Assembly (NCBI GenBank): GCA_045613805.1
Contig: JAZLBS010000056.1
Span: forward strand, 32,438-96,437
Direction of reading: 5' to 3'
DNA length: 64,000 bases
Source of the DNA: Acutalibacteraceae bacterium
GTDB taxonomy: Bacteria; Bacillota; Clostridia; Oscillospirales; Acutalibacteraceae
Part shown: piece after piece, positions 36,258 through 59,959 of the stretch
Layout of the letters: every line of letters starts with the position of its first letter
How positions within the stretch are numbered: the first letter of the stretch is position 1
Made by a program: the position numbers and the translations under genes
Notes under the pieces: generated by a model
What the model saw: only the letters and a program-made list of their open reading frames with translations
The model's database searches: none
Told to the model about the DNA's origin: nothing

Positions 36258-36295
36258 AGCATTATTACCTCAAAAACAAACATATACTATCTGTT

Positions 36296-37051: not shown

Positions 37052-37071
37052 TCTTTTTCCTCCAAAACATT

Positions 37072-37431
37072 TTACTGACCTATGCCGTTGTTACAGGATT
37101 CAACACTTTCAATAGATCCTTCGATAGGATCATCATTACCGCAATGAGCGCATATAGCAGTTTTTTTTGCTTTATCATGACATGTATAATTACCGCAAGC
37201 GCCACATCTAAAAAAAGATCTGTTCCCGCAGTGAGGGCATTTATATTGCGGTCCTAGTCTGATCGAACCGTAGTTAAATTGCATATTTTCTCCAAAAGAG
37301 CTTTCTCCCGGCGGAAGGGTTTTCACACCATAAGTCAGAACCCAACGGTCATCTGCCGCTAAATCATGACGAACATAAAAGGTCTCCCGATTTTCGGCGC
37401 ACTTAACCTTCAAAAAAAATAACGTTTTCAT
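37072..37431 (-). CDS. Small (119 aa) triple CxxCGN zinc-ribbon protein (TerY-C-like metal-binding module encoded as a separate gene)
   Basis: ..CPHCGNRSFFRCGACGNYTCHDKAKKTAICAHCGN.. First gene of the operon. SD AAGGAG. Confidence 0.65.
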   Translation of the reverse strand: MKTLFFLKVKCAENRETFYVRHDLAADDRWVLTYGVKTLPPGESSFGENMQFNYGSIRLGPQYKCPHCGNRSFFRCGACGNYTCHDKAKKTAICAHCGNDDPIEGSIESVESCNNGIGQ

Positions 37432-37610: not shown

Positions 37611-39821
37611 ATGTTTAATACTTTTGGATTATATACTTCTCTGAATATAGCCGCCCGTATTTTAGTTTATGTTTTTAATATTTTAAATTTTAAAGCTAAA
37701 TCAGAAGTAATCGGTAGAGGTACAATATTTTTCACAAAACCAATAAGTAATAAATCTGAAAAACGTTTTGTAACAATTCTTCTTACATTAGGTGAAATCG
37801 TTATCATTTCATTCGCTCAATATCAGCTCAGCAGTATTAACAGCATCTTCGGCGAACTTGTCGGAACAGAAGCCAATTATTTCGGAAAACTAATTTTTTC
37901 TCCGTTCTTAGTTTCTTTTTTTTGTCTTTTGTTAGGTATAGATGTTTTCAAACAAATGGATATCATCACTCCGGCTTTACCTCTTGCTCTTGCTGTTTCA
38001 AAGTTTGGATGCTTTTGTACAGGATGCTGTCGAGGAATAGAGTGCTCTTTCGGATTGTATAATTATGACACTGAGCAAACAGAATTTCCTGTTCAATTGG
38101 TGGAAATGGCTCTGGCAATATGCATTTTTATTTTTCTTATGCTATGGCGAAAAAAAGCCAAAGAAGGAACTATGTTCCCTATTTATGTTATTCTTTACAG
38201 CTCCACAAGATTTTTCAGCGAATTTCTCAGAGCTGAAGAAAATGTTTTCCTTTTCCTCAAAACCTATCATATCCTGTGTATTTTAGGTACAGCCACAGGT
38301 GTTTTTCTGCTGTTCTTCATAAAAAAGCAAAAAGAAAGAATCCGTCAATTTTACAGCAATTTTTTTGATGCAATCGAAGATATTTTAAACGAGATCGCTG
38401 TAAGACTCGGAATAAAAAGCAGCCGTGAAATTATACACCATAAAAACAAAAAGAAGAAAAAATCATCATCAATACAAAAGGCCGAAAAAGCAACAAAAAT
38501 ATCCGATATGAAAAGATGGATAATAATCTGGACGCTCGGTCTTATCGGACAAATAGGATGGAATATTGAAGGTACCTGGTTCAATACCTTTGTATATGAA
38601 AAAATAGATAAAACACCTTCTATTATTACTCCTATGCTTATTCTCAGTGCCTTAGCTACAACAGTCTCAATTTTTCTGTTCGGAACTTTAACAGACCGAA
38701 CAGGCAAACGAAGAAATCTTATAAGCTCAGGCTTCATCGGTTGGGGTTTGCTTTTTATTTTCTTTGGAGCTACACAGTTCATAGCCCGAAAAAATCTCGC
38801 TGTAGGTATTGCATCAATCCTTGTAATGGATATGCTGATAAGCTTTTTTGGTTCAATGAGTACAGATGTCGGTTACAGCACCTGGCTTACTGATATAATG
38901 AACAATAATAACCGAGGACAAATAGGCGCTGCAATCGCTACACAAACTGTATTAGGCTCTCTGTTAGGTAACATTATCGGCGGATATATAGTCGGCAAGG
39001 AAAACAATTATCTCAGACTGTTTGTTGTGGTCGGCTCTTTGTTTGCTTTTCTCGGAATGATTTCTATCTTTCTTTTTGATAAAAAAGATGACGTTAAACC
39101 ATCTGTCAGAGGTAGTTTCACCAAACAGCTTTCAGGCATTTTTAATTTCAAAACAATATTAAAAAATAAAGAATTTATGTGGGTTAATTTAGCTGTCGCA
39201 ATATTCTTCACAGGTTATAATACCTATTTCCCTCATCTCGGCAATATGTTAACTCAATATATCGGGTACTCCGCCACGCAAATGGGTATAATCAAAGCTG
39301 TTCCCATGATTTTTGCTATGCTTGCTACATTGCCTGTCTCAAAATTCATCAACAAAAACAAATTTGTCGAGGTTTCTCTGATTTCGGTTGTAACCGGATT
39401 AATAGGAATTTTAAGTGTTTTTAAAACAAATCCGGAAAGTATTGACGTAAGCAAAACCTTTAATTTCAGACTGTTTTTTGCTATATTCCTTGTAGGTGTC
39501 AGTTATATCATTATGTTGCAGACAACAAAGACATGGACTAAAAATCTGCATCCGCAGGAAACTAAAGGACAGTTTGAGGGCATATGGGCAATCTCCTTTG
39601 CTCTCATACCCGCAATCATTGGTTCATATGTCGGTGAGTGGATTGTTAAAACCGGCGGAGAAACACTGTTTAACACTGTCACTCAAAGGTACGAGTATAT
39701 CCCCAACGGAAAAGTATTTTTAGTCGGTGCAATAATTTCCACATTCAGCTTTATCCCCATAATTATTGCAAAAAAATACGCCAATAAAAGAATCAGTGTT
39801 ACTCAAACAGAAAAAAATTAA
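37611..39821 (+). CDS. Fusion protein: N-terminal Lgt-family domain (about 250 aa) joined to a C-terminal MFS-type 12-TM transporter domain
   Basis: N-terminal part: ..SKFGCFCTGCCRGIECSFG.. and ..EFPVQLVEMALAI.., the same signature as the stand-alone paralogue at 16395-17135. A Lys-rich linker follows (HHKNKKKKKSSSIQKAEK). Then about 12 hydrophobic helices with MFS-like loops (..GTLTDRTGKRRNLI..). It is a single uninterrupted ORF. Confidence 0.65.
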   Translation: MFNTFGLYTSLNIAARILVYVFNILNFKAKSEVIGRGTIFFTKPISNKSEKRFVTILLTLGEIVIISFAQYQLSSINSIFGELVGTEANYFGKLIFSPFLVSFFCLLLGIDVFKQMDIITPALPLALAVSKFGCFCTGCCRGIECSFGLYNYDTEQTEFPVQLVEMALAICIFIFLMLWRKKAKEGTMFPIYVILYSSTRFFSEFLRAEENVFLFLKTYHILCILGTATGVFLLFFIKKQKERIRQFYSNFFDAIEDILNEIAVRLGIKSSREIIHHKNKKKKKSSSIQKAEKATKISDMKRWIIIWTLGLIGQIGWNIEGTWFNTFVYEKIDKTPSIITPMLILSALATTVSIFLFGTLTDRTGKRRNLISSGFIGWGLLFIFFGATQFIARKNLAVGIASILVMDMLISFFGSMSTDVGYSTWLTDIMNNNNRGQIGAAIATQTVLGSLLGNIIGGYIVGKENNYLRLFVVVGSLFAFLGMISIFLFDKKDDVKPSVRGSFTKQLSGIFNFKTILKNKEFMWVNLAVAIFFTGYNTYFPHLGNMLTQYIGYSATQMGIIKAVPMIFAMLATLPVSKFINKNKFVEVSLISVVTGLIGILSVFKTNPESIDVSKTFNFRLFFAIFLVGVSYIIMLQTTKTWTKNLHPQETKGQFEGIWAISFALIPAIIGSYVGEWIVKTGGETLFNTVTQRYEYIPNGKVFLVGAIISTFSFIPIIIAKKYANKRISVTQTEKN

Positions 39822-40093: not shown

Positions 40094-40166
40094 CAGCTTG
40101 TCGAAAATAATTTTTCGACAAGCTGAAACAGAGTCGGTTGTCTTCAACAACTGACTCTGTTTTTTT
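40094..40166. terminator. Tandem hairpins at the 3' end of the NRPS operon. The second also works as a strong plus-strand terminator.
   Basis: Hairpin 1 is a perfect 14-bp stem: CAGCTTGTCGAAAA (40094-40107) pairs with TTTTCGACAAGCTG (40112-40125). Hairpin 2: ACAGAGTCGGTTG (40128-40140) pairs with CAACTGACTCTGT (40148-40160) with one G-U pair, followed by T7. The T-run overlaps the TAA of the minus-strand NRPS gene. Confidence 0.65.
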
Positions 40167-43100
40167 ATATATCCTTCATTATAATACGTATGAGTTCATC
40201 ACTGTCATCGCTTTGGAAATAATGGCTTTCAGAGTCAATAAAGCTGATATTTTCCACAAACTCCGAATAATTTTTCCACAGTATTTCAGCACTTTCATAT
40301 TTTTGGGTAAACCGATCATTTTTACTTAAGATTATACTTGTCGGTGCTTTTATTCTTTTAGCCAACGCAGAAAATGCAATCCTTGCGAAATCGGTATCTT
40401 TTCTGAAGTCCTTTAATATTTTTTCAATTTTCTTTTCCGAAAGACAGCTGAAGTTTACTCCTGCACCGATCAATATTCTTTTAAGAATTAAATCAGGTAC
40501 ATAATTCCATGTATTTCGTTTTTCTGCCTTTACAGGAGGAATACTTGCTGCAGCAAAATAATGCTCAACTGATATTAAATTGCTTTCAAGATAAGATATA
40601 ATCTGCAAAGCTACAGCCGATCCTACACAATGTGAATAAAACATTATTTTCTTATCTTTTGAAAACTTTGCTATTTCACTTGCTGCATTTTCACATTCCT
40701 CCAGAGAATGTAAATACCTGATGAAATAAACAGCAATATCATTTCTTGTCTTTTTTAGAGAACCAACAAAATTACCAAAGGCCTCTGAACTGCCACCGGC
40801 AAAAGGCAGAATAATAAGCATCCTTTTAGCTTCTTGAGGCACATATAGGGCTTCAAGATATTTGGTCTCTCTTATCGGAGCCTCGCTAAGCACAGAAGCA
40901 AGCATTGCAGGAGTAGGATTTCTCATAAACTCTGCTGCAGAAACATTTTGAAATCTATCTTCGCTCAAAAGAGAAATCATAGAATAGCTTGTTCCGCCCA
41001 AATCAAAGAAATCACTGTTTCTACCAACATTCTTTTCTCCTAAAATTTTCTCAAATACACGGCAAATATATCTTTCCGTGTCATTGACAGGCTCTGAAGT
41101 TTCTTCTTCAGTTATGATAAATTCCATTTCTGCAAGTGATTTTCTGTCAAGCTTGCCGTTGCTGTTAAGAGGTATAGAATCAAGATGAACAGTGAAAGAC
41201 GGTACCATATATTTAGGCAGCTTATTACGACAAATTTCTTTTACAGTTGCCTCGTCAACAACCTTGCCGCTGTAAAAAGCAACAAGAAACTCCCTGCCGT
41301 TCTCCTTTTTCAGAATAACTGCTACAGACTCGACCTCCTCCAGAGATAATATTACAGCTTCTATTTCTCCGATTTCAATACGCTGACCGTTTAATTTAAT
41401 CTGATTATCGATTCTTCCGCAGAACACAATATTACCGTCTTCACGCCAATATGCATTATCTCCGGTTCTGTACAGCTTTCCTTCTCCGAAGGGGTTGTCT
41501 ATGAACTTTTCTGCAGTAAGGTCTGGGTTATTAAGGTAGCCCTGTCCCACATTCATACCTGCAATGCAAAGCTCACCCATTACACCTAAGGGTACCGCCT
41601 TATTATATTTGTCTACTATATACATCTGTGTATTGTAGATGGGCTTACCGATAGGTACAGGATCTGCATCTGTCGGTGCACAGTCATAGTAGGTTACGTC
41701 TACTGCACATTCAGTAGGTCCGTACAGATTGTGAATGCCTACCTTACTGTAATCATACATACGGTAGAATCTCTGTATGAGATTCGCAGTAAGTGCCTCA
41801 CCTGACAGGAAAACATATCTTACACTTTCAAATTTATATATCTCTTCCTTGTGTGTTTCAAGATAGTTTAAAAACAGCTCAAATACAGATGGCACAAAAT
41901 GAATGTGTGTCACCTTGTTTTTATGAACCTCTTCAAGTATCTTTGCCGGAAGAAAATGTTCGCCGGGCTTTGAAACTGCGAGAGAGCCTCCGCACATACC
42001 CCACCAGAAATGCTCCCATACGGATACGTCAAAGGTATAGGGGGTTTTCTGTAAAATCACATCATCTTTTACGAGAGGATACTTGTCGTGCATCCACAGT
42101 ATTCGGTTAACGGCTGATTTATGGCTTACCATTGCACCTTTTGGATTTCCTGTTGAGCCTGAGGTGTAAATCACATAAGCAGTATCCTCCGGCTTTGCAT
42201 TGCATTCAGGTATAACCATATTTTCATCTGATGCTTTTTTCATCAGCTCAGTCACATCAATACAGGGGATGTTTCTGATCTTATCCGCAAACTTGCCCTG
42301 AACAACTGCAGCGGCTGCTGAACTGTTTTCGAGGATATATTCTATTCTTTCCTGAGGATAATCAGGGTCTATGGGCAGATATGCATTACCGCCGCGGATT
42401 ATTCCGTAAATAGCGCAGTACATTTCAGGTGAACGTTCTGCAATAACTGCTATTACAGACTTTTCTTCTTTTGTAGCTGTTCTGATTTTTGCATCAAGCT
42501 TTTCCGATGCTGTCAGAAGCTCACCGAAGGTAAGAGCTCTTTCTGTGGTTCTTATGCAGATACGCTCTTCGTTTTCCTTAGCAGTTTTTTCGAATAGGCT
42601 GTAAAGTGTTGCATTTTCTGGAATGTCATAGCTGTGTTCAGTTTCGTTGAAGCCTTCAAGCAGCTTCATATCCGTTACCGATATATCCTTAACCTTCTTT
42701 TCTCCGTCAGAGTACAATTCGAGAATAGAAATATAACTGTTGACAAACGATAAAATCTCCTCTTCGGTATATGTATCTTTCGAGTAAGATGTTCTGATAA
42801 TATATTCGCTTTTTTCTTTGAAAACAGCAACAGAAAGATTAAACTCTGTTTTTTCATTAAAGAAAACAGTCTTAGGTGATAAAAGACCTTTTTCCATATC
42901 ATCAATAAGATCTTCGCCTATATAATAATTTTCAAAGGCAAACAATGCATCGATCAATCTTCCGTTAATATTACATATTTTATAAATTTCCGAAAGAGAC
43001 AGTATTCCATATCTGTTAGCGTCAATCGTCTGCTTTTGTGTTTCAGCCATTAAATCTGCTAAAGTAGAGGTTTCATTACTCCTAAATCTTATTGGAACAG

Positions 43101-44001
43101 TATTTACAAACAGACCGATTGTATTCTCTATATTTTTAAGAGGAATGCTTCTGCCGGAAATTACCTTATCAAACAAAATGTCATTACTTCCCGAAAACTT
43201 TTGCAGAGCAATACCAAAGGCAGATTCAAATACAGTATTATTTGAAACCTTATTCTTCTTTGCATACTCTTCAATTTTATCAGATGCAGCTTTACCGATA
43301 TAAGTTCTGAACGTTACAATATCTTTATTTATACTGTCGTTCTCTTTATCAAATATATGAGAATAAGAATAATCACTGAGCAAATTTTGCCAATATTCAG
43401 AAGCCTGTGATTTATCCTGTTTCTTCAGCCAATTTACATATTGTGCATAGGAGGTCTGATCTGATACCTCTTTGTTTATTTCTTCCGCCAACTCGTCTGT
43501 ATTTTTTCCCTCTGAAAACCCTTTGTAATACCGCTGTAAATCTTTCATTATTATGGGGAAACACCAACCGTCAAGGATAATATGATGTGAACGAAAAAGC
43601 AAAAAGCATTTATCAGTAAACTCTACTATAATAACCTTGAAAAGATTGTCCTTCTGCAAATCTAAAGGTTCTTTTGCATCCTCTTTAACAATTTCATCCA
43701 GAACAGACTGCGAAAACATCTTATCCTGCGATAAAACTGTAACTTCAGCAGTTCTGTTTTCAAGAATAACCTGCTTTATTACATTTGTGGATTTCAAAAA
43801 AGCGAATGCAGTTTTCAAAACCGGATGGCGAAGAAACAGTAATTCTATACTCTTTTTTATCAAGTTAAGATCAGCATCTTTATCAATTTCGAACAATGAA
43901 TGAAAATGATATATTTTCGCATCACCGCTCTGAAAATGCTGAACATATATACCTTCCTGAGCAGGCGTTAAGCTATAAATATCTTTAATGTTATTGTTCA
44001 T
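40165..44001 (-). CDS. NRPS, module 3: C-A(Ser)-T-TE
   Basis: C domain (HHIILDGWC). A domain (YTSGSTGNPKG, FDVSVWE, NLYGPTE, GELCIAG, YRTGD, NGQRIEIGEIE). Hand-extracted specificity code DVWHFSLVDK, equal to the EntF-type Ser code. T domain (FFDLGGTSYSM). TE (LPFAGGSS .. FYSHCVGSAVA .. SKNDRF .. SESHYF). The ATG at 44001 (MNNNIKDIY..) overlaps the upstream stop by 11 nt. The track start at 44019 is a TTG. Confidence 0.9.
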   Translation of the reverse strand: MNNNIKDIYSLTPAQEGIYVQHFQSGDAKIYHFHSLFEIDKDADLNLIKKSIELLFLRHPVLKTAFAFLKSTNVIKQVILENRTAEVTVLSQDKMFSQSVLDEIVKEDAKEPLDLQKDNLFKVIIVEFTDKCFLLFRSHHIILDGWCFPIIMKDLQRYYKGFSEGKNTDELAEEINKEVSDQTSYAQYVNWLKKQDKSQASEYWQNLLSDYSYSHIFDKENDSINKDIVTFRTYIGKAASDKIEEYAKKNKVSNNTVFESAFGIALQKFSGSNDILFDKVISGRSIPLKNIENTIGLFVNTVPIRFRSNETSTLADLMAETQKQTIDANRYGILSLSEIYKICNINGRLIDALFAFENYYIGEDLIDDMEKGLLSPKTVFFNEKTEFNLSVAVFKEKSEYIIRTSYSKDTYTEEEILSFVNSYISILELYSDGEKKVKDISVTDMKLLEGFNETEHSYDIPENATLYSLFEKTAKENEERICIRTTERALTFGELLTASEKLDAKIRTATKEEKSVIAVIAERSPEMYCAIYGIIRGGNAYLPIDPDYPQERIEYILENSSAAAAVVQGKFADKIRNIPCIDVTELMKKASDENMVIPECNAKPEDTAYVIYTSGSTGNPKGAMVSHKSAVNRILWMHDKYPLVKDDVILQKTPYTFDVSVWEHFWWGMCGGSLAVSKPGEHFLPAKILEEVHKNKVTHIHFVPSVFELFLNYLETHKEEIYKFESVRYVFLSGEALTANLIQRFYRMYDYSKVGIHNLYGPTECAVDVTYYDCAPTDADPVPIGKPIYNTQMYIVDKYNKAVPLGVMGELCIAGMNVGQGYLNNPDLTAEKFIDNPFGEGKLYRTGDNAYWREDGNIVFCGRIDNQIKLNGQRIEIGEIEAVILSLEEVESVAVILKKENGREFLVAFYSGKVVDEATVKEICRNKLPKYMVPSFTVHLDSIPLNSNGKLDRKSLAEMEFIITEEETSEPVNDTERYICRVFEKILGEKNVGRNSDFFDLGGTSYSMISLLSEDRFQNVSAAEFMRNPTPAMLASVLSEAPIRETKYLEALYVPQEAKRMLIILPFAGGSSEAFGNFVGSLKKTRNDIAVYFIRYLHSLEECENAASEIAKFSKDKKIMFYSHCVGSAVALQIISYLESNLISVEHYFAAASIPPVKAEKRNTWNYVPDLILKRILIGAGVNFSCLSEKKIEKILKDFRKDTDFARIAFSALAKRIKAPTSIILSKNDRFTQKYESAEILWKNYSEFVENISFIDSESHYFQSDDSDELIRIIMKDI

Positions 44002-47000
44002 AATCACCTGTCCAATCAAATAAATCTTTTAATTCATCCAGTTCAGATTCCGTAAGCTCGTCATCAGAAAAATCCGAACGTGTTTTTATAATTATGTCAT
44101 TTTCAGTACATGCTGCAACAAGCTTTTCAATATACTCTCTGAATACCATTCCAAGCCGTTCACCAAACTTTGCTTCGTATTTCCATCTAGGAACAGATAT
44201 ACTTACCGACAGAATACCCTCTGTGACAGAGCAATCAACATTGATTCTATTACGAAAAACCGAACCATTAGAATTAAATCCGACAAGCCTGCTTTTCTCG
44301 TCTTTGTCAGCTTGATAAAAATTAAATTTTATCTCAGCATTTTTGTGAAACTCCTGTGACAGAAGAAGATAATCCACTCCGCCTCTCGGTATTCGTCTGA
44401 GTGTTTCTTTAATGTTAATGAGCTCATCGGTGATGTTTGAATTGTTATCAATTACAACGGGATAACAAACCGTAAACCAACCGACAGTACGGTCAATAGC
44501 AATCGGCTTATTAAGTTCTGCTCTGCCGTGGCCTTCAATAATTATACCGACTGAGCCCTCTGCCATTTCAGCAGCAGCAAGACCCAAAGCAGTCAGAAGC
44601 ACTTCATTGGGTTTTGTTCCGTATTTGTAATTAGTATCATTTAGCAACTTACCTGTAAGGCTTTTATCTAAAACAAAGCTGATTTTTTCTGCTTTTTCAG
44701 AATCAGTTTTTTCTTCAGAAAACACTTTTACATTATCAAGCTTTTCATCAACGCTTTTCCAATATAATTTACTCTCTTCGCTTATTGATTCGGCATATTT
44801 CTGCAATTCTTCATTCCACAGCTTAAATGATGCGGTTTTAGCCGGCAAAGAAATCGGCTCTTTATTCTTCAGCTGTTCAACGACAGTCATAAAGTCCCTT
44901 ATCAGAATTTCCCATGACACCAGATCGACCAAGAAATGGTGTATGCTGATACTGATAAAATTTCCCTCGTCAGTATTACAAAACGTAATGTGAACCGGCT
45001 TTTCATGGAGTGTTTTTTCTTCAAAATATTTCCTTAAGCTATCTGCATCAGCAGCTGTAATGCGTTCCGTTGAATATACATCTCTATCTTTTGAGGAATG
45101 AACAATGATACCCTTTTCACAAACAGTACCTCTTAAAATATCGTGATGTGAAACAAGAACATCCAAAGCTTTTACTGCTGTTTCTTCATCACAGTCAACA
45201 GAAACAGTGCACGTGTGCACAAAATCATCTGACACTGTATCGTTCTCTTTAAGGTAAGTGCGCATAATCGGACTGAACGGAATGTATCCGTTAACCTCAT
45301 CTTGAACATATATCACCTTTTCAGATATTGATTTCATAGCCTCTGCCATTTCTGAAAAGGTTTCCTTCTGCATCACATCAGAAATATGAAGCTCATATCC
45401 CTGCTCTTCAAGCTCGGAAACTATATAAATAGCCTTAATCGAGTCGCCGCCTGAATTAAAGAAATTATCCTGCATACTGATGCTGTTCAGCTTCATAACA
45501 GAGCAAACTGCATCAGAGAGAGCTTTTTCTTTAACAGTTTTCGGTACGATATATTCTGTTTCTGTACTGATACTTTCGAGTTCAATTTCAGGCAATGCGT
45601 TCCTGTCAATCTTGCCGCTTACCGTCAGCGGCATTTCTTTAAGATGAACAAATATATGAGGTATCATATATTTCGGAAGTCTCTCACCAAGTATCTGCCT
45701 GAACTGATTTGCTTCTGTTTTTTCTCCTGTATAAAAGGCACAGATAAGTGCTCTGTCCTGTGCATCACTTCTGACAACAGCGGCAGACATATTTATTCCG
45801 TCAATTCCCGAAATTGCACTTTCAATTTCTCCCAGTTCTATTCTTAAACCTCTTATCTTTACCTGAAAGTCCTTTCTGCCAGCAAAGACTATGCTTCCGT
45901 CTTCACGCCAATATGCATTGTCACCGGTTTTATAAAGCTTTCCGTTACCGAAGGGGTTGTCAATGAACTTTTCTGCTGTAAGCTCAGGATTGTTGAGATA
46001 ACCTGCACCAACACCGTCACCCGCAATGCAAAGCTCACCCGTCACGCCGACAGCTACAGGCTTAAGATAATTATCAGTAATGTATATCTTTGCATTATTT
46101 ACAGGACTACCGATGGAGAAATAAGTTCCGTCCGTGTTATCTTCGGGGCTAACGATAAAGTCTGTGCAGCTTACAGTTGCCTCTGTAGGCCCGTATTCGT
46201 TATGGATTTCTATGTGTTTGCCAAACTTATTCAAAAATTGGGCACAAGTGTCTTTATAAAAGCTTTCACCGCCAACAATCACACATCGGATATTAGGACA
46301 GCTTTTAGCAGGAACAAGCTTATTGACAATTCCGATATGTGTAGGGGTAAATTTGATAATGTTAAGCTTTTCGTTATCGAAAATACTGACAAGATCATTT
46401 TTTAATTCACCGTTATACATATACACCGTACCGCCGGTAATCAAAGGGAAATAGATAGACGGAACAGTTAAATCCACACTTTGAGACGTAAAGAACGGCA
46501 TATTTATATTCTCCGTTCCGTAAAGATTTTTAAGAACGGACATATACCACACTAAGTTCCGATGATATAAAAGAGCTCCTTTAGGACTGCCTGTAGAGCC
46601 CGAGGTATATATACAATAACAGAAATCATCAGGTACAACCGCACTGTCAGGGTTTTCTGCAACATAGTTTTCAAGCAAGCCATAAAAATTTTCTTCTGAA
46701 ATACACAGCTTTGCATTACTGTCAACAAGGATGGTTCTGTTTCTCTCTTCAGGATGGTCAGGATCCAGGGGAAGATATGCCGCACCGGTTTTGAGTACAC
46801 CGAACAAAGCTACCATAAAGCAGCTCTTTCTCGGCAGCATAAGTCCTACGATATCACCCTTGCCTATACCTTTTTCTATGAGTGCATGTGCTATTCTGTT
46901 GGCTTCTTCGTTGAGCTGCCTGTATGTGAGAGTTTTGTCGCTTGCAACTACTGCAGCCTTGTCAGGTGTTCTTTCTGCCTGTTCTTCAAAAAGCTCGTGG

Positions 47001-50000
47001 ATGCATTTGTCCTTACGGTAGTCTGAGTCTGTATCATTGAAGCTATTGATAAGAGACATATCAGTCACAGATATATCTTTGATGTACTTAGAATCGTCCA
47101 TACATTGTTCAAGCAGCTGCACATACATCTGAGCAAAACCGGTTATCTTTTCCTCTTTAAACAGCTCACTGCAGTATTCGATAGCAAGGACCACATCATC
47201 TTTTCTGGGCAGAATATTGAAGGTCATATCGCATTTTGAAACTTCGGTTGATAATGGTATGAGCTCTGCCTTCTTATCTGCAAATGATATATCTGTCATT
47301 TCAAAGCTCTGGTATGCAAGCATTACATCGTATACAGGGTTTCTACCTGATGCAGTTATACCAAGCTTCTTTACTAATTCTCCGAAGGGATAATTCTGGT
47401 TATCTATTGCTTCTATTGAACACTCTCTGATTTCAGTGAGCAGCTCAGAGAATTTCTTGTTTCCTTCAGGTCTGCTTCTGAGAGCTATTGTATTTACAAA
47501 CATACCGATGGCTCTGAGATGTCTGCTCTGTCTTCCGCTTATGGGTGTACCTGTAATAATATCCTCAGTTCCTGATAACTTGGAAAGAAACACACTGAAG
47601 CAAGCCATATAGTATACATATGGCGTTATTCCTCTTTCTTTACATTTCTCTTCTATTCTTTTATGAAGGCTGATATCTATCTGCTCATAGATATTGCTTC
47701 CCTTGAAGCTCTGTACGGCACCTCTCTGGCAATCTGTCGGTAGATTGAGCCCGAATTTTTCATCTGAAAACAGATTCAACCAGTACTTTTCGTTATCTTC
47801 GGTATATTTGTCTGTAACAGCAAACTCTCCGTACTGTACTGCTTCTCCTGATAATTCTCTGCCCATATACAGTTCATTGAGCTCTCTGAAGAATACGGGC
47901 ATGCTTTCTCCGTCAACTGTGATATGGTGCATACTTATGATAACGGTATCGTTGTTGCATCCTACTCGCAGAAGAGGTGATTTGCCAAGATCAAAGGGTT
48001 TAGTGAAGGTGTTGATATCTTCGATGCTTTCCACCGATATTTCTGCACTTTCATCAATAACCTGACAGATTACACCGTCTCTGTTTTCAAAGTGAGTTCT
48101 TAAGCTTTCGTGTCTTTCTATGAGCTTGTTGACTGCTTCTCTGAGTCTTGTTTTATCGATACTGTCACTCTTGAATGCATAAGTAACATTGTAGAGGGTT
48201 GTATCAGGAACAAGCATCTGGGCTGTATATACGCGCATCTGGGCTGCTGTTGCCGGAATTACATTTCCGTATTCTATACTCTCTTCTTCCTGCTCTTTTG
48301 CTTCAAGCTTTTCTGCAAGCTCACGGATATCCTTACCTGAGAATATTTTCTTTATCGGTACGGTGTAGCCCTTTTCCTCAATTCTTGCCGTAAGCTCTAT
48401 TGCCTTTAAGCTGTCGCCGCCGATATCAAAGAAGTTATCAAGGATACTTACTCTTTCTGCTCCGAGTACATCCACTATACAATCGATAAGTATCTTTTCT
48501 TCTTCTGTTCCGGGAGCAACATATTCTGTTTCCGTACTGATATTTTCAAGCTCAATTTCAGGTAATGCATTTCTGTTTGCCTTACCGCTTGAGGTCATGG
48601 GCATTTCTTCAAGATGTGTGAAGATATGGGGCACCATATACTTAGGAAGGCGCTTACCAAGCTCTTCTCTGAGTGCCTTTGATGCTTTTTCTTCGCCTGT
48701 ATAGAAGGCACAGATAAGCTGTCTGCCTTCCTTGTCTTTGCGGACTACTGCAACAGCACGGTCGATATTATCTGTTGCCTGCAGTGCACTTTCAATTTCT
48801 CCCAGCTCTATTCTCAGTCCTCTTATCTTTACCTGGAAGTCACTTCTGCCCACAAATACAATGTTGCCGTCTTCACGCCAATATGCATTATCACCTGTTC
48901 TGTAAAGCTTGCCTTCACCGAAGGGGTTATCGATGAATTTTTCGGCTGTGAGTTCAGGTCGGTTGAGATAACCCTGACCTACATTCATGCCTGCAATGCA
49001 AAGCTCTCCTGTTACTCCGACGGGTACAGGCTTCATATATTTGTCTGTAATGTATATCTGCGTATTGTGAATAGGTTTACCGATAGGCACAGGGTCAATA
49101 TCTGTCGGTGCACAGTCATAATATGTTACGTCAACGGCACATTCGGTAGGTCCGTAAAGGTTATGAATACTTACCTTTTCATAATCATACATTCTGTAAA
49201 ATCTCTCTATGAGATTTGCGGTTAAAGCCTCACCTGACAGGAATACATATCTTACTGAATTAAACTTTTCTATTTCATCTGTATGAACTTCAAGATAGTT
49301 AAGGAACAGCTCAAATACCGACGGCACAAAATGAATATGTGTAACCTTATTCTGACTTGCTTCATCGAGTATTTTAGCAGGAAGGAAGTGCTCTCCCGGC
49401 TTTGATACTGCCAATTTTCCTCCGCACATACCCCACCAGAAATGCTCCCACACTGATACGTCAAAGGTATAGGGTGTTTTCTGTAAAATTACATCATCTG
49501 TACCAAGAGGATACTTGTCGTGCATCCATAATATACGGTTAACGGCAGACCTGTGGCTTACCTTTGCTCCCTTGGGGTTACCCGTAGAGCCTGAGGTATA
49601 GATTACGTAAGCTGTATCGTCAGCTTCGGCTGCGCATGGCGGTATATTACTACTGTCATTTTCATCTTTGATAAGCTCTGTCATATCTATACAGGGTATA
49701 TTCTTCACCTTGTCGGCAAATTTATCCTGAACGGCAACTGCTTTCGCTCCGCTGTTTTTCAGTATATATTCTATTCTGTCCTGCGGATAATCAGGATCGA
49801 CAGGAAGATATGCATTGCCACCTCGGATTGTACCGTAAATAGCTGCATACATTTCAATTGAACGCTCAGTAATTATTGCGATAACTGACTTTTTATTTTC
49901 GGTAATACTGCGTATTTTCCCATCAATGCTTTCGCTCAGATTTAACAGTTCACCAAAGCTTACTGACATTTCTGATGTTGATATACAAATTTTATCCTTG

Positions 50001-51343
50001 TTCTCTTTGGCTGTCTTTTCAAATAGACTGTAAAGAGTAGAGTTTTCCGGAACATTATAGCTATAAACTGTATCGTTGAAATCAACATGTATTTTTTTCT
50101 TTTCTTCAGCTGAAAGCATTTCAAGCTCTGAGATTTTTTTCTCAGGATTCTCAAGTGCATCTTCAATTATAGCGATAAAAGAGTTCAACATAGTCTGAAT
50201 TTCTTTTTCAGTGAACATAGATGTTCGGTAACGAATTTTGAGATTGTGCTTTTCATTTCCGAAAGACTGCATATGAATCTCAAGAGGAAGAGAAAGAGAG
50301 TTACTGTAAACAAATTCAAACTCATAATCCTCGTTTTCGTCAAACTCCTGATAATCTGCAGCAATATCAAAAAGGTTGTTTTGCGGCTTACCTTCTTCTT
50401 TTAAAAGCTCTTTAATATCGTGTTGAGTGAACTTCTGGTGTCTGAATAAATTCATTTGTGCATCTTCAATTCCGGCAGCATTTTGTAAAAATGAACTGTC
50501 TGAAAGTTTTACAATCAAAGGGACGATGTGCATATAAAGTCCAATCGTATTAAGTTCAGCTTCAGTTGTTCTGTTAAGTACAGGAATTCCAAGTGTAAAG
50601 AAATCTGTTCCTGATGTTCTGTAAATATACACAGAATATACTGTATTGAAAAAGCTCTGAACAGATATTTCGTTATTGTAACAATATGTTTTAATTTTAT
50701 CAAACATTTCAGGAGCTACACTAAAATTAACCTCATCAGATGCGTAATCGAATGAGGTTTTCTTTTCTTCAAATATTGAGCATTGAGGGTTTAATGAAAA
50801 TTGATTTAACCAAAAATCATAGTCTTTTTTATAACGTTTTGAACCGATATAAGTTTTTTCATTCTGTATATGTGTTTGATAGTCTTCTGCTTTTTTCGAA
50901 TAGGATCCTTCATTTATAACAGTATTCAAAAAATCACACATTATTTGTCCGCTAAGACCATCAAGTATCAAATGATGGGCATTTATTATATAACCGGAAC
51001 CTCCATCAGTTTGAAAAATTATACAACCAAATAAACTTTGTTTAATGTCAATAGGTTTATTAACTAAAAGGTTTACTTCCTTTACCAGATGTTCCTTATT
51101 GTCGAAGCTCATAAAAGGATAATTAACTCTTTTGAAAGGTGTAACAGTTGTACTTGAGTTGCTATTTGATACAATTCTTATAGAATCAAATTTTTCAACG
51201 AAACAATTAAAAGAATCATTTAACCGTTCGTATGAATATCTTTTATAAAACCAACAAACCAGGCCATGGTTCCAAAGGTTTTCCTTAGATTTTATCAAAA
51301 AATTTTTTTGCGATGAAGTAACCTCAAATTTCAAAAATATCAC
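43991..51343 (-). CDS. NRPS, modules 1-2: Cs(starter C)-A(Ser)-T-C-A(Asn-like)-T-E
   Basis: Starter-type C domain (HHLILDGLS). A1 code DVWHFSLVDK (Ser). T1 (FFDIGGDSLKAIEL). C2 (MHHITVDGES). A2 code read as DLPKIGEVSK, closest remembered code Asn DLTKLGEVGK. T2 (FFNSGGDSIKAIY). The terminal domain has the epimerase-type motif HHFLVDLVSWEIL. The start is a GTG at 51343 or a TTG at 51334; this is uncertain. Confidence 0.9.
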   Translation of the reverse strand: MIFLKFEVTSSQKNFLIKSKENLWNHGLVCWFYKRYSYERLNDSFNCFVEKFDSIRIVSNSNSSTTVTPFKRVNYPFMSFDNKEHLVKEVNLLVNKPIDIKQSLFGCIIFQTDGGSGYIINAHHLILDGLSGQIMCDFLNTVINEGSYSKKAEDYQTHIQNEKTYIGSKRYKKDYDFWLNQFSLNPQCSIFEEKKTSFDYASDEVNFSVAPEMFDKIKTYCYNNEISVQSFFNTVYSVYIYRTSGTDFFTLGIPVLNRTTEAELNTIGLYMHIVPLIVKLSDSSFLQNAAGIEDAQMNLFRHQKFTQHDIKELLKEEGKPQNNLFDIAADYQEFDENEDYEFEFVYSNSLSLPLEIHMQSFGNEKHNLKIRYRTSMFTEKEIQTMLNSFIAIIEDALENPEKKISELEMLSAEEKKKIHVDFNDTVYSYNVPENSTLYSLFEKTAKENKDKICISTSEMSVSFGELLNLSESIDGKIRSITENKKSVIAIITERSIEMYAAIYGTIRGGNAYLPVDPDYPQDRIEYILKNSGAKAVAVQDKFADKVKNIPCIDMTELIKDENDSSNIPPCAAEADDTAYVIYTSGSTGNPKGAKVSHRSAVNRILWMHDKYPLGTDDVILQKTPYTFDVSVWEHFWWGMCGGKLAVSKPGEHFLPAKILDEASQNKVTHIHFVPSVFELFLNYLEVHTDEIEKFNSVRYVFLSGEALTANLIERFYRMYDYEKVSIHNLYGPTECAVDVTYYDCAPTDIDPVPIGKPIHNTQIYITDKYMKPVPVGVTGELCIAGMNVGQGYLNRPELTAEKFIDNPFGEGKLYRTGDNAYWREDGNIVFVGRSDFQVKIRGLRIELGEIESALQATDNIDRAVAVVRKDKEGRQLICAFYTGEEKASKALREELGKRLPKYMVPHIFTHLEEMPMTSSGKANRNALPEIELENISTETEYVAPGTEEEKILIDCIVDVLGAERVSILDNFFDIGGDSLKAIELTARIEEKGYTVPIKKIFSGKDIRELAEKLEAKEQEEESIEYGNVIPATAAQMRVYTAQMLVPDTTLYNVTYAFKSDSIDKTRLREAVNKLIERHESLRTHFENRDGVICQVIDESAEISVESIEDINTFTKPFDLGKSPLLRVGCNNDTVIISMHHITVDGESMPVFFRELNELYMGRELSGEAVQYGEFAVTDKYTEDNEKYWLNLFSDEKFGLNLPTDCQRGAVQSFKGSNIYEQIDISLHKRIEEKCKERGITPYVYYMACFSVFLSKLSGTEDIITGTPISGRQSRHLRAIGMFVNTIALRSRPEGNKKFSELLTEIRECSIEAIDNQNYPFGELVKKLGITASGRNPVYDVMLAYQSFEMTDISFADKKAELIPLSTEVSKCDMTFNILPRKDDVVLAIEYCSELFKEEKITGFAQMYVQLLEQCMDDSKYIKDISVTDMSLINSFNDTDSDYRKDKCIHELFEEQAERTPDKAAVVASDKTLTYRQLNEEANRIAHALIEKGIGKGDIVGLMLPRKSCFMVALFGVLKTGAAYLPLDPDHPEERNRTILVDSNAKLCISEENFYGLLENYVAENPDSAVVPDDFCYCIYTSGSTGSPKGALLYHRNLVWYMSVLKNLYGTENINMPFFTSQSVDLTVPSIYFPLITGGTVYMYNGELKNDLVSIFDNEKLNIIKFTPTHIGIVNKLVPAKSCPNIRCVIVGGESFYKDTCAQFLNKFGKHIEIHNEYGPTEATVSCTDFIVSPEDNTDGTYFSIGSPVNNAKIYITDNYLKPVAVGVTGELCIAGDGVGAGYLNNPELTAEKFIDNPFGNGKLYKTGDNAYWREDGSIVFAGRKDFQVKIRGLRIELGEIESAISGIDGINMSAAVVRSDAQDRALICAFYTGEKTEANQFRQILGERLPKYMIPHIFVHLKEMPLTVSGKIDRNALPEIELESISTETEYIVPKTVKEKALSDAVCSVMKLNSISMQDNFFNSGGDSIKAIYIVSELEEQGYELHISDVMQKETFSEMAEAMKSISEKVIYVQDEVNGYIPFSPIMRTYLKENDTVSDDFVHTCTVSVDCDEETAVKALDVLVSHHDILRGTVCEKGIIVHSSKDRDVYSTERITAADADSLRKYFEEKTLHEKPVHITFCNTDEGNFISISIHHFLVDLVSWEILIRDFMTVVEQLKNKEPISLPAKTASFKLWNEELQKYAESISEESKLYWKSVDEKLDNVKVFSEEKTDSEKAEKISFVLDKSLTGKLLNDTNYKYGTKPNEVLLTALGLAAAEMAEGSVGIIIEGHGRAELNKPIAIDRTVGWFTVCYPVVIDNNSNITDELINIKETLRRIPRGGVDYLLLSQEFHKNAEIKFNFYQADKDEKSRLVGFNSNGSVFRNRINVDCSVTEGILSVSISVPRWKYEAKFGERLGMVFREYIEKLVAACTENDIIIKTRSDFSDDELTESELDELKDLFDWTGDYEQ

Positions 51344-51368: not shown

Positions 51369-52016
51369 TCATTTTTCCAGCGGAGTATCGTATAGTTTTA
51401 AATATGTATTACTTTCTTGTGCTGCATGTTTGCAAAAGAAATTAAAATAACGAGTAAATTTTCTTGCTTGCTGTTCTGTTAAATTGTCAACGCCTGTAAA
51501 AGCTTCTGCTTCTTCAAATAAAAATGTTGCATTGTGTGCCACATACTCTTTGCCGAGCTCAACATAAAAACAAAGAGTTTGCTCAAAACTTACATTCTCA
51601 ATCATGCCATAATCAATGCCGTGACTCAATATTCCACCAAAAGAACAGTCCAAGTATGCTGTAAAAGATTCTAAATATTTTTCACAACATCTGCGTTGAG
51701 AAGCTTCCGGATAACCGCTTTGCAATACATATGAAATGTTTTTATTTTTAATAGAATTTTTATTCTTAGATAATAGTTCTAAAAACTCCTTAAACAGACT
51801 TGGTACAATACCCACATAAACAGGTGTTGCAAAAACAATGTTATCTGCATCTGAAATTTTCTTTATTATTTGTTCCCATTCTGTCCTTTTGCATAAATAC
51901 AAAATTTCTGTTTCGCCCTTGCTTTCCAATATTCCTTTTTTAAAAGCCTTTATAAGCCTGTTTGTGTTACTGTATTCAAGAGAATGAGGTGTAGCGCTTA
52001 TTATCAAAACATGCAT
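51369..52016 (-). CDS. Flavodoxin-fold NAD(P)H-dependent FMN reductase-like protein
   Basis: MHVLIISATPHS..NTNRL..(x)..DADNIVFATPVYVGIVPSLFKEFLE, typical of the FMN_red/flavodoxin_2 family. SD GAGGAGG. 13-nt overlap with the upstream gene. Confidence 0.6.
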   Translation of the reverse strand: MHVLIISATPHSLEYSNTNRLIKAFKKGILESKGETEILYLCKRTEWEQIIKKISDADNIVFATPVYVGIVPSLFKEFLELLSKNKNSIKNKNISYVLQSGYPEASQRRCCEKYLESFTAYLDCSFGGILSHGIDYGMIENVSFEQTLCFYVELGKEYVAHNATFLFEEAEAFTGVDNLTEQQARKFTRYFNFFCKHAAQESNTYLKLYDTPLEK

Positions 52017-52516
52017 TTTATCGCCTCCTCAATATCAGCCAAGTGAAAAGTTCCCAGCGATTTATCACTGAAATGGTCCACATATAAATCCAACCAAGAG
52101 TTAAGCATAGTATTATCTGCTTCACCCTTATAAAGAACACCAATATTAAACTCTTTTGAATACCTTGACGGGTGTCTTATTTGCCCGTTTCTCCATTCGG
52201 AATAAACTATAACAAAACAATATCTTCTTTCAAAAAGCCGCATAGCTTTGTAGCTTAGAAAATTCATTTCTGTATCGGCAATAAATATTATATTGTCATA
52301 TTTAAAAAATAATCGTGCAATATCATTGTAATCGTCATTCAAACAACAAACACCAGGATTTTCAATCATACATTTATTGCATCCCGTACAATGCATAATA
52401 TTCATTTCACAGGTATTTACAACCTTTACATTGTCTGATATTTCCGAAAGTTTTTTTATAGCCTTAATCGCATCTTCATCATCTTCCGGCAAAGTATTAA
52501 TTATAAGCAAACTCAT
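52004..52516 (-). CDS. Flavodoxin-fold protein with a Cys cluster (iron-sulfur flavoprotein-like)
   Basis: MSLLIINT.. ..IMHCTGCNKCMIENPGVCCLNDDY.. ..DNIIFIADTEMNFLSYKAMRLFER resembles the Isf/NADPH-dependent FMN reductase family. Confidence 0.5.
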   Translation of the reverse strand: MSLLIINTLPEDDEDAIKAIKKLSEISDNVKVVNTCEMNIMHCTGCNKCMIENPGVCCLNDDYNDIARLFFKYDNIIFIADTEMNFLSYKAMRLFERRYCFVIVYSEWRNGQIRHPSRYSKEFNIGVLYKGEADNTMLNSWLDLYVDHFSDKSLGTFHLADIEEAIKCMF

Positions 52517-52763: not shown

Positions 52764-54494
52764 TTACTCCTTTATATCGTTTATCTCTTTTTCTAAAGAC
52801 AGATAATTCACCTTACCCATATTTGTTACAGGCAATTCATCTCTGAATATAATCTCATGAGGAAGAGAATATTCAGACAGATTGTTCTTACAACATTCCA
52901 TTATCTTTTCTTTCACTGCATCTTTGTCGGCATCCTTGTTGTTAAGTACAACAAATGCAGCGATTTTCTGTCCGTAAATTCTGTCACTTACCCCGACTAC
53001 ACAGCTCTGAGCCACAGCAGGACAGGTGCATATAGCATCTTCAACCTGTGTTGCATATACATTGTAACCGCCGCAGATTATCATACGGGAATTTCGCTGG
53101 CGGAAGTATATGAAACCGTCCTTATCTTTAGAAAACATATCGCCCGTGTGAAGCCACACCTTACCGTCACTGTGTAACTGTAAAGCCTTTGCGGTAGCCT
53201 CTTCATTTTTATGGTAGCCTTTCATTACAAGCGGGCCTGAAACACAAAGCTCACCGTCTTCACCGTCAGGCAATTCTTCTTGTGTTCCGGGTTTGACTAT
53301 TTTAAAATATACATCGGGATATGCAATACCCGCACTACCGATTCTTGTATCAAACTTAGGATTTATAGAACAGCCTGCAACACATTCAGTCTGACCGTAA
53401 GCCTCCCTGAGCACTACGTCAGCTCCGCCCTTTTTCAGCGTTTTATTGACTCTTTTCTGAAGCTTTTCAGGAAGCTTGTCGCCACCACAAACAAGAAGCT
53501 CCATAAAAGACAAATCTGCTTTATCAATATATTCACTTCTTATAAGCGCTTCAAATAGGCCGGGCACACCGTAAATACAATTAATCTTTTTCTTAAAGAT
53601 CAGCTTACTGCATTCATTGAAATCATATTTCGGAAGAAGATACACATGAAAGCCTAAGCTTAACATTGCATGAACACAAATCACCAGGCCAAACCCATGA
53701 AAAAGAGGCATAACAGCAAGAGATTTTTTTCCGACTACATCCTCTATACCGCCAATATCATATGTGTGTAATGCAAGACTGTTTATATTAAGATTGGTTA
53801 TCATAACACCTTTTGGTGTACCCGAAGAACCGCCACTGTAAAGAATAACGGCTGTATCGTCTGCTTTACCGTCATCTGTCGGCAATTCTCTTTTCTCTCT
53901 TTTGCCTTCGCTAATAAAATCATTCCAATAAATAACATCATGCTCCGGATTGAAAGTAAGCTTCAATTTATTCTTTGCTGAATAGACAGGCTTAGCATAC
54001 CAAGGCAGAGCATCAGCAATTTTCGCAAGAATCATTTTAGGCTCTTTTGAGGTATTCCACCGGATTTTCGCGAATTTAGGATAAATCATATCCAGGGTAA
54101 GAATTGCCACACTATCGGTATTTTCTACAAACTCCTGAATCTCTTTTGCAGAAAGTAGGGGATGAATCATATTGGCTATTGCACCTATACGGTTAAGTGC
54201 ATATATCATAAAAAGAGCTTGGGGTGTATTCGGTGCAACAATAGAAACACAGTCTCCTTTTTTAACCCCTGTTGCAATCAATGCCTTTGCAGCTTCTTCT
54301 ATATTTTTTATCAATTGCTTATAGGAATATTTTTTTCCCTGAAACTCTAAAGCACATAAATCAGGATATTTTAAAGCGCCTCTCCTCAGATGCTCAAAAA
54401 AAGAATATTCCGGATATTCAGAAATCCACTTGTCCGGATTCATATGGTCAAACCATATGGTTTTCACTCTATCCACAACAAACACCTCCCCCAT
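52764..54494 (-). CDS. Acyl-AMP/acyl-CoA ligase (ANL superfamily), the presumed lipo-initiation enzyme loading the adjacent ACP
   Basis: AMP-binding motifs (LYSGGSSGTPKG, EAYGQTE, GELCVSG, HTGD, GGYNV). The start is uncertain. The ATG at 54494 lies only about 10 nt from the -10 box and has no SD. An in-frame GTG at 54476 is preceded by GGGGGAGGTG. Confidence 0.8.
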   Translation of the reverse strand: MGEVFVVDRVKTIWFDHMNPDKWISEYPEYSFFEHLRRGALKYPDLCALEFQGKKYSYKQLIKNIEEAAKALIATGVKKGDCVSIVAPNTPQALFMIYALNRIGAIANMIHPLLSAKEIQEFVENTDSVAILTLDMIYPKFAKIRWNTSKEPKMILAKIADALPWYAKPVYSAKNKLKLTFNPEHDVIYWNDFISEGKREKRELPTDDGKADDTAVILYSGGSSGTPKGVMITNLNINSLALHTYDIGGIEDVVGKKSLAVMPLFHGFGLVICVHAMLSLGFHVYLLPKYDFNECSKLIFKKKINCIYGVPGLFEALIRSEYIDKADLSFMELLVCGGDKLPEKLQKRVNKTLKKGGADVVLREAYGQTECVAGCSINPKFDTRIGSAGIAYPDVYFKIVKPGTQEELPDGEDGELCVSGPLVMKGYHKNEEATAKALQLHSDGKVWLHTGDMFSKDKDGFIYFRQRNSRMIICGGYNVYATQVEDAICTCPAVAQSCVVGVSDRIYGQKIAAFVVLNNKDADKDAVKEKIMECCKNNLSEYSLPHEIIFRDELPVTNMGKVNYLSLEKEINDIKE

Positions 54495-59940: not shown

Positions 59941-59959
59941 TAACCCTTCTCCTTTGCTG

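Follow-up and report, generated by a model that had tools for sequence, protein, structure and literature searches.

A non-ribosomal peptide synthetase (NRPS) encoded in a 64,000-nucleotide stretch of an Acutalibacteraceae bacterium (contig JAZLBS010000056.1; the whole stretch is called the window here) ends in a thioesterase (TE) domain where cysteine takes the place of the usual nucleophilic serine. From sequence alignments and a structural model, the domain is predicted to be catalytically active with a Cys-His-Asp triad, to belong to the ObiF/SulM class and to have its acid at the late position seen in type II thioesterases. The most likely mechanism, which we infer with a probability of about one half, is an ObiF-like release that would free the chain as a lipotripeptidyl serine beta-lactone. 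This reading is favoured because the triad, the fold class and the substrate logic of the domain are homologous to those of ObiF.

The terminal thioesterase and its catalytic residues

The termination module is encoded by a single open reading frame (ORF) on the minus strand with the Pfam-assigned architecture condensation-adenylation-carrier-thioesterase (C-A-T-TE). Its domains and the residues discussed below are as follows.

40165-44019 (-): termination-module ORF, 1284 aa from a TTG start, with an ATG 6 codons downstream
42673..43986 (-): condensation domain, DCL-like (takes a D-configured donor); Pfam Condensation, residues 12-449
41152..42594 (-): adenylation domain 3, predicted to load L-Ser; Pfam AMP-binding 476-829 and AMP-binding_C 885-956
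40894..41070 (-): carrier (T) domain 3 with a GGTS phosphopantetheine site; Pfam PP-binding 984-1042
40168..40836 (-): thioesterase domain, residues ~1062-1284, alpha/beta-hydrolase fold; Pfam PF00975, AlphaFold2 (AF2), Foldseek and profile search against the PDB
40627-40629 (-): Cys1131, TGT codon, predicted elbow nucleophile (S-H-C-V-G); in the column of ObiF1 Cys1146
40630..40632 (-): His1130, just before the nucleophile and nearly invariant; equivalent to ObiF1 His1145
40315-40317 (-): Asp1235 (SKNDRFT; SKNDRF from residue 1232), predicted triad acid at the late 'position II'; aligns with ObiF1 Asp1254
40222-40224 (-): His1266 (SESHYFQ; SESHYF from residue 1263), predicted triad histidine; aligns with ObiF1 His1284

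An earlier note on this DNA had described the FYSHCVGSAVA elbow with its TGT codon and had put forward the SKNDRF and SESHYF motifs as the source of the catalytic Asp and His. Its coordinates and sequence were found to be correct when the ORF translation was read again. The PF00975 match to the TE (residues 1068-1281) scores 24.9 bits and lies under the 26.4 gathering cut-off. This Pfam model was observed to capture the clade poorly, as the window TE (40177-40818) falls under threshold and several homologues (P0003-P0012) have no precomputed Pfam match; standard cluster annotation may overlook the release domain of this family because of such sub-threshold scores.

In single-sequence HMMER searches against PDB sequences, MFYSHCVGSAVA of the window TE aligns with VVYGHCAGNALA of ObiF1, and the window cysteine shares a column with the serine of the GHSMG motif in SrfAD, YbtT and BorB. 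When a profile of six subfamily members was searched against the PDB, ObiF1 was the top sequence match across the full TE domain (E 1.5e-9), with SrfAD at 9e-5 and SulM at 4.5e-4. The alignment to this family profile places Cys1131, Asp1235 and His1266 exactly on Cys1146, Asp1254 and His1284 of ObiF1, the triad that was defined through mutagenesis (PMC6668435); for ObiF1 the PDB chain index equals the published number plus 20, an offset that was checked against the same paper. His1145 of ObiF1, the counterpart of His1130, has been assigned a role in stabilising the oxyanion (PMC6668435). An alanine of the window TE sits at the position of ObiF1 Gly1173, where EntF-type domains have their Asp. 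The acid is instead found at 'position II', a location typical for RifR, type II thioesterases, ObiF and SulM.

The AF2 model of the TE domain, computed from a 15-sequence input, has a mean pLDDT of 93.7. In the model the cysteine lies between strand 63-69 and helix 72-85 (domain numbering), which is the nucleophile elbow, and the Asp of SKNDRF comes after strand 166-170. A Foldseek search of this model against the PDB ranked the SulM TE first (8w2d/8w2c, E 2e-13, TM-score 0.82), followed by ObiF1 (6n8e) with E 1.6e-12, the highest TM-score of 0.86 and a root-mean-square deviation of 2.6. The type II thioesterases RedJ, YbtT and RifR rank after ObiF1 and the surfactin domain SrfTE (1jmk) was found at rank 43. 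The structure-based alignment with ObiF, SulM and surfactin thioesterases that the earlier note had proposed as a check is thus positive for the elbow position, and the nearest solved sequence and structures are those of ObiF1 and SulM, the two enzymes to which the domain had been likened. No other solved thioesterase domains are known to form strained four-membered rings. The sequence and fold features of an ObiF-class cysteine thioesterase are all found in the domain: it is fused to the synthetase, has an elbow Cys, a position-II Asp and a C-terminal His, and follows a module predicted to load a beta-hydroxy residue.

Conservation of the cysteine

Residues H69, C70, D174 and H205 (domain numbering) were observed to be invariant or nearly so among 14 homologues retrieved by a word-indexed search. 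An exhaustive HMMER scan of 1.84 billion representative proteins, clustered at 50% identity, gave 221 representatives at E<=1e-3. When 150 of these 221 matches were pooled with the 14 homologues, 143 elbow segments could be recovered and cysteine is present in every one of them (143/143); the D..T and HYF motifs are also retained in this set. No informative annotation came from the cluster-member names of ten remote members of the family. Relatives of the window TE subfamily were found in at least 95 GTDB species in a scan of one genome per species with the 6-sequence alignment as query, and the elbow Y-S-H-C-[VA]-G occurs in 80/80 of the loci that were kept from 95 GTDB relatives (L001-L080). 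All 80 come from metagenome-assembled genomes (MAGs) of uncultured gut Clostridia. Their labels are Acutalibacteraceae, Ca. Fimenecus or 'Clostridia bacterium', and ruminant hindgut samples are the origin of many.

Judged from these alignments, the cysteine is a selected, clade-defining trait rather than an error. A single base change separates TGT from AGT and from TCT, and the codon could in principle be a one-base artefact of a Ser codon, produced by a sequencing error or in a decaying pseudogene. The reading frames are intact and Cys is kept in every homologue; its conservation across independent assemblies refutes this explanation, to which we give a negligible chance. Resequencing of the codon, as had been suggested, is unneeded because such thioesterases are numerous in sequence space. 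The related statement that cysteine thioesterases are rare among NRPS release domains holds for the characterised enzymes (ObiF, SulM and BulbE) but not for sequence space, with 221 clusters and at least 95 species.

The terminal residue and its link with the cysteine thioesterase

Specificity codes of the adenylation domains were read through alignment to the GrsA-PheA positions, a procedure that gave the expected code DAWTIAAICK for the reference fragment itself. Module 1 has the code DVWHFSLVDK, module 2 DLPKIGEVSK and module 3 DVWHFSLV(D)K. The codes of modules 1 and 3 are identical to the EntF serine code, and the predicted serine assignment rests on this identity. The code of module 2 is most like those for asparagine, and this assignment is tentative. 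The claim that the terminal module loads Ser was therefore borne out at the level of the specificity code. Diaminopropionate (Dap) was considered as the terminal residue and rejected, since the code of SulA3 for Dap, DVWEMNADDK (PMC12042044), carries Asp-Asp in its eighth and ninth places. There the window code reads Val-Asp, and its fourth residue is His. No genes for Dap synthesis were seen.

A terminal code of the form DVW[H/E/D]FSLVDK was found in nearly every readable locus among the 80, while the upstream modules differ in code and in number, from 0 to 3. Across the wider family, an A domain precedes the TE in 87 members, and its code is Ser-like in 61/87 and Thr-like in 10/87; ObiF-like codes (DLAKIAHVSK, before an internal TE) account for 3/87 and SulM Dap-like codes for 2/87. 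About 87% of these members are thus predicted to load a beta-heteroatom residue and about 80% Ser or Thr. As read from these codes, the cysteine thioesterase and a C-terminal beta-heteroatom residue are the constant features of the family, and therefore the chemistry would be expected to involve the side chain of the terminal residue itself rather than cyclisation onto Ser1.

The closest relative, L001 (2512-6846) from an Acutalibacteraceae MAG, has a termination subunit that is 82% identical to that of the window but lacks window module 1; its terminal Ser and Cys-TE are retained. These observations bear on a further possible outcome, in which the side chain of Ser1 would close a macrolactone, a strained 10-membered depsipeptide ring. 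A serine is indeed predicted at position 1 and cysteine thioesterases are associated with difficult cyclisations, yet terminal Ser and Cys-TE are kept in L001 in the absence of module 1 and in other relatives with 0-3 differing upstream modules. This alternative, which the earlier note had left standing, is accordingly rated as very unlikely.

Some variation was observed in the terminal code. Position 4 is occupied by Glu or Asp (DVWEFSLVDK or DVWDFSLVDK) in L006, L008, L009, L012, L014, L017, L024 and L027, and also in the terminal A domains of L042, L045, L055, L073 and L074. The SulM Dap code likewise has Glu at position 4, and loading of either Ser or a diamino acid is conceivable in these loci; a diamino acid, if loaded, would imply lactams. 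A minority code, DYA[TM]CSV[VE][WC]K, ends the synthetases of L071, L077, P0022 and P0050, where the Cys-TE is kept. Both L071 and L077 still have the Lgt-like neighbour described below.

The assembly line and the predicted peptide

The genes upstream of the termination module, all on the minus strand, are as follows.

43991..51343 (-): NRPS subunit A, starter C-A(Ser)-T-C-A(Asn-like)-T-E (E, epimerisation domain) with a C-terminal docking tail; from Pfam, motifs and codes
51369..52516 (-): two small flavodoxin-like genes between ligase and NRPS
52764..54494 (-): fatty acyl-CoA ligase-like enzyme, putative source of the N-acyl starter; matches long-chain-fatty-acid--CoA ligase families in Pfam and NCBIfam

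Subunit A starts with a divergent C domain. Its closing E domain, recognised from the motifs HHFLVD, EGHGRA and RTVGWFT, precedes the acidic docking tail. The best PDB sequence matches of the C domain in the termination module are BacC (the domain after its E domain), TycB1 and SrfA-C. This domain was called DCL-like because it is nearest to C domains that follow an E domain and because the upstream protein ends in one. The chain on carrier domain 3 is accordingly predicted from sequence to be acyl-L-Ser-D-Xaa(Asn-like)-L-Ser, where the supply of the acyl starter by the ligase and the identity of residue 2 are putative. An ORF family of the acyl-CoA ligase type was found in 58 related loci, a count that may include edge-truncated fragments of NRPS A domains. 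The flavodoxin-like pair consists of a 215 aa protein matching FMN_red/Flavodoxin_2 and a 170 aa Cys-rich protein with a CxxCxxC...CC motif and no Pfam match. These genes may modify the acyl starter, and they were observed to travel with the acyl-CoA ligase in L001, L026, L031, L071 and L077.

Domain A1 (48400-50050) is 69% identical to A3 (41150-42600) and has the same Ser code, while A2 and A3 are 36% identical. This suggests that the window synthetase has acquired an A(Ser)-T-C unit behind its starter C domain, since L001 has no module 1 and A1 is closer to A3 than A2 is. Two gene groups that look unrelated flank the cluster: a Ser/Thr protein kinase with a vWA-domain protein and a TerY-C-like protein at 33170-37431(-), and an AAA ATPase with a 707-aa MreB/Hsp70-like protein at 56790-62083(-).

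The proposed release mechanism

In the beta-lactone reading, the starter C domain would receive a fatty acyl group from the acyl-CoA ligase, and the assembly line would extend it to acyl-L-Ser-D-Xaa(Asn-like)-L-Ser, bound to carrier domain 3. This peptide would then pass to Cys1131 by an energy-neutral transthioesterification in which His1130 and the pair His1266/Asp1235 assist. Next, the C-terminal Ser would attack the acyl-S-enzyme thioester through its beta-hydroxyl (4-exo-trig) to free the lipotripeptidyl serine beta-lactone, an electrophile that should be capable of acylating the nucleophiles of hydrolases.

The release would follow the precedent of ObiF. There the chain moves to Cys by transthioesterification before the beta-hydroxyl forms the beta-lactone ring, and the Cys-to-Ser variant only hydrolyses (PMC6668435). 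In BulbE, which uses a weak indole nucleophile, the exchange of Cys for Ser likewise switches the outcome to hydrolysis (PMC11536411). The cysteine of the window clade is probably kept under selection, because the Ser swap diverts both ObiF1 and BulbE to hydrolysis. The clade-wide link between the Cys-TE and Ser/Thr modules lends indirect support to a beta-lactone. Support of the same indirect kind comes from the single-module C-A(Ser)-T-TE clusters that exist among the relatives, where the Ser hydroxyl would be the sole obvious internal nucleophile and an N-acyl beta-hydroxy residue would be released from one module, as in the logic of ObiF. The minimal cluster of L025, for example, is flanked by sugar-metabolism genes and has four genes, which encode the ligase, C-A(Ser)-T-TE(Cys), the Lgt-like protein and a phosphopantetheinyl transferase.

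Simple hydrolysis would instead give the linear acyl-Ser-D-Xaa-Ser acid, with the cysteine being a lineage trait from a type-II-like ancestor. The fold and the Asp position are common to the hydrolytic type II thioesterases RedJ, YbtT and RifR, and a cysteine enzyme could hydrolyse its substrate because thioesters and oxoesters are similarly reactive toward hydrolysis (PMC11536411). Such an outcome leaves unexplained both the conservation of Cys in all 143 elbows and the presence of Ser/Thr modules upstream in about 80% of members; moreover, the Ser variant is the better hydrolase in ObiF1 and BulbE, so that a hydrolytic enzyme would have no reason to keep Cys. We regard hydrolysis as unlikely.

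Several points weigh against the beta-lactone reading. The identity of the domain to ObiF1 and SulM is just 17-19%, its fold class is shared with purely hydrolytic type II thioesterases, and cysteine thioesterases are able to carry out other difficult acylations, as in BulbE (PMC11536411). A few close relatives (L071, L077 and P0022) have a terminal code other than that for Ser, DYA[TM]CSVVWK. Neither the ObiF nor the SulM system has an equivalent of the conserved Lgt-like partner, whose presence may point to a different chemistry. In contrast to some beta-lactone clusters, no duplicated immunity gene of the hydrolase type was recognised in the cluster. In our literature searches no product was known for any member of the subfamily, and searches on Acutalibacteraceae NRPS, Ser/Thr beta-lactone thioesterases, GXCXG and Lgt in biosynthetic clusters returned nothing on the family.

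The Lgt-fold partner gene

The gene downstream of the TE is convergent with it.

37611..39821 (+): Lgt-fold membrane domain (1-270) fused to a major facilitator superfamily (MFS) transporter; Pfam LGT and MFS_1
40125..40163 (no strand): 17-bp perfect hairpin directly 3' of the TE stop codon

The hairpin is likely to be a terminator common to the convergent TE and Lgt-MFS genes. In the related loci, an Lgt-like homologue follows the TE directly in ~62 of ~72 informative cases and is usually free-standing with a length of ~290 aa. Two reverse look-ups that started from Lgt-like homologues both led to a position beside a Cys-TE NRPS with Ser codes.

The product of 37611-39821 scores far below the curated Lgt models (44.4 against a cut-off of 118.9 for TIGR00544 and 52.4 against 334 for NF000778). 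No match was obtained for the Lgt-MFS protein among PDB sequences, and AF2 modelling of the Lgt-like domain followed by Foldseek gave E. coli Lgt (5azb, E 4.6e-4) as the sole significant match. Compared with E. coli Lgt, residues R143, N146, E151 and H103 tentatively appear to be replaced while R239 and E243 are kept; four cysteines (Cys134, Cys139, Cys140 and Cys223) are invariant in the Lgt-like family. A genuine Lgt was rejected as the identity of this gene, as the cut-offs are missed and the catalytic set His103/Arg143/Asn146/Glu151/Arg239/Glu243 seems to be incomplete, although the latter comparison is tentative. For similar reasons, namely scores far under the Lgt cut-offs and the apparent loss of catalytic residues, a resistant copy of a drug target is unlikely. 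The partner could act in immunity, in coupling to export or in the transfer of lipids.

A second, more divergent Lgt-like gene with the same GCCxG motif is present in the window at 16395-17135(-) and adjoins a 2595-aa ORF at 8482-16269(-). Ala, Leu, Asp and Glu are abundant in the 2595-aa product, which has by eye a hydrophobic N-terminus resembling a signal peptide and shows no Pfam match.

The tight linkage of an Lgt-fold protein to the TE raises the alternative of intermolecular transfer or iterative esterification, where an external hydroxyl would attack the acyl-S-Cys intermediate. The acceptor would be the Ser of a second chain, as in EntF/SwrW-like oligoesters, or a glycerolipid or other molecule coupled to the Lgt-like protein. 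Lgt enzymes handle phosphatidylglycerol, and the single-module C-A(Ser)-T-TE relatives share the architecture of EntF and SwrW. The known iterative Ser-esterifying thioesterases, however, have a Ser nucleophile and a position I Asp whereas the window TE groups with ObiF and SulM, and the Lgt-like protein appears, tentatively, to be without the canonical Lgt catalytic residues. Its frequent fusion to an exporter is also at least as compatible with a function in immunity or export. Intermolecular transfer is therefore given a low probability, and closure of the serine beta-lactone is retained as the preferred outcome.

Significance

In the literature searched, ObiF, SulM and BulbE are the sole characterised Cys-dependent NRPS thioesterases, and their chemistry goes beyond that of the serine enzymes. 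Our scans indicate that the ObiF/SulM-type Cys-TE forms a coherent, well-populated clade that is coupled to Ser/Thr modules in about 80% of cases; this coupling therefore offers a sequence rule for mining candidate producers of beta-lactones or beta-lactams. A broader proposal, which we put forward only tentatively and consider somewhat improbable as a whole, is that the window represents one member of a large gut Clostridia family that makes N-acyl-serine or lipopeptidyl-serine beta-lactones with a dedicated, Cys-rich membrane protein of the Lgt fold as a new type of partner for immunity or lipid coupling. If so, the family products would be diffusible covalent hydrolase inhibitors that are widespread in animal guts. 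Serine beta-lactones from this source would be covalent enzyme inhibitors of a new, microbiome-derived class and could be drawn on for warheads.

Comparison with known systems

The window TE resembles the type II editing thioesterases (RifR, RedJ, YbtT and SrfAD) in its fold subclass, its PFAGG N-terminal motif and its Asp position. Identity as a type II thioesterase was rejected since those enzymes are free-standing and use the Ser of GHSxG, whereas the window domain is part of the 1284-aa ORF and has Cys. A canonical type I thioesterase of the SrfTE/EntF kind was also rejected, given the Cys nucleophile, the Ala at position I (where Asp would occur ~27 residues downstream) and the rank of SrfTE in the structural search.

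EntF and SwrW have the single-module architecture C-A(Ser)-T-TE. The minimal relatives of the window system are alike in this architecture, in length (~1250-1290 aa) and in the identical Ser code, but the EntF and SwrW thioesterases use Ser and build oligoesters, and the window TE belongs to another sequence clade. BulbE, the macrocyclase that forms the indolylamide of bulbiferamide, shares the Cys nucleophile and needs it for non-hydrolytic release. It differs in having an earlier Asp (Cys961/Asp988) and a Trp indole as the attacking group, and the window has no comparable substrate.

The SulM TE (8w2c/8w2d) is similar to that of the window in its Cys nucleophile and position-II Asp and likewise groups with the type II thioesterases. 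A SulM-like lactam former is recognised by a Gln-Cys-Asn motif, an Arg-rich pocket, a last A domain for Dap and a sulfotransferase (PMC11298585). The elbow of the window TE reads S-H-C-V-G instead of Gln-Cys-Asn, its preceding code is that for Ser (DVWHFSLVDK) instead of Dap (DVWEMNADDK), and no sulfotransferase was found among the genes of the window cluster; a monobactam former of the SulM type was therefore rejected.

ObiF1 (6n8e) has the most in common with the window system. Both have a C-A-T-TE termination module, a Cys nucleophile preceded by His, a late RifR-like Asp and a small residue at the usual Asp position, and in both the last module loads an N-acylated beta-hydroxy amino acid (by prediction in the window). 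The two are ~19% identical and the elbow is G-H-C-A-G in ObiF1 but S-H-C-V-G in the window. The substrate of ObiF1 is a dihydroxybenzoyl-beta-OH-nitro-homoPhe chain as compared with the predicted fatty-acyl tripeptide ending in Ser. Unlike in ObiF, no aryl carrier, aryl A or MbtH-like domain was found in the window NRPS subunits, and no ThrRS-type immunity gene was recognised. The hosts also differ, a gut Clostridia member as opposed to a proteobacterium, and the Lgt-like partner gene is a feature of the window. What is new here, as far as sequence can tell, is an ObiF-class thioesterase in a Firmicutes lipopeptide system that combines an S-H-C-x-G elbow, a predicted terminal Ser and an Lgt-like partner.

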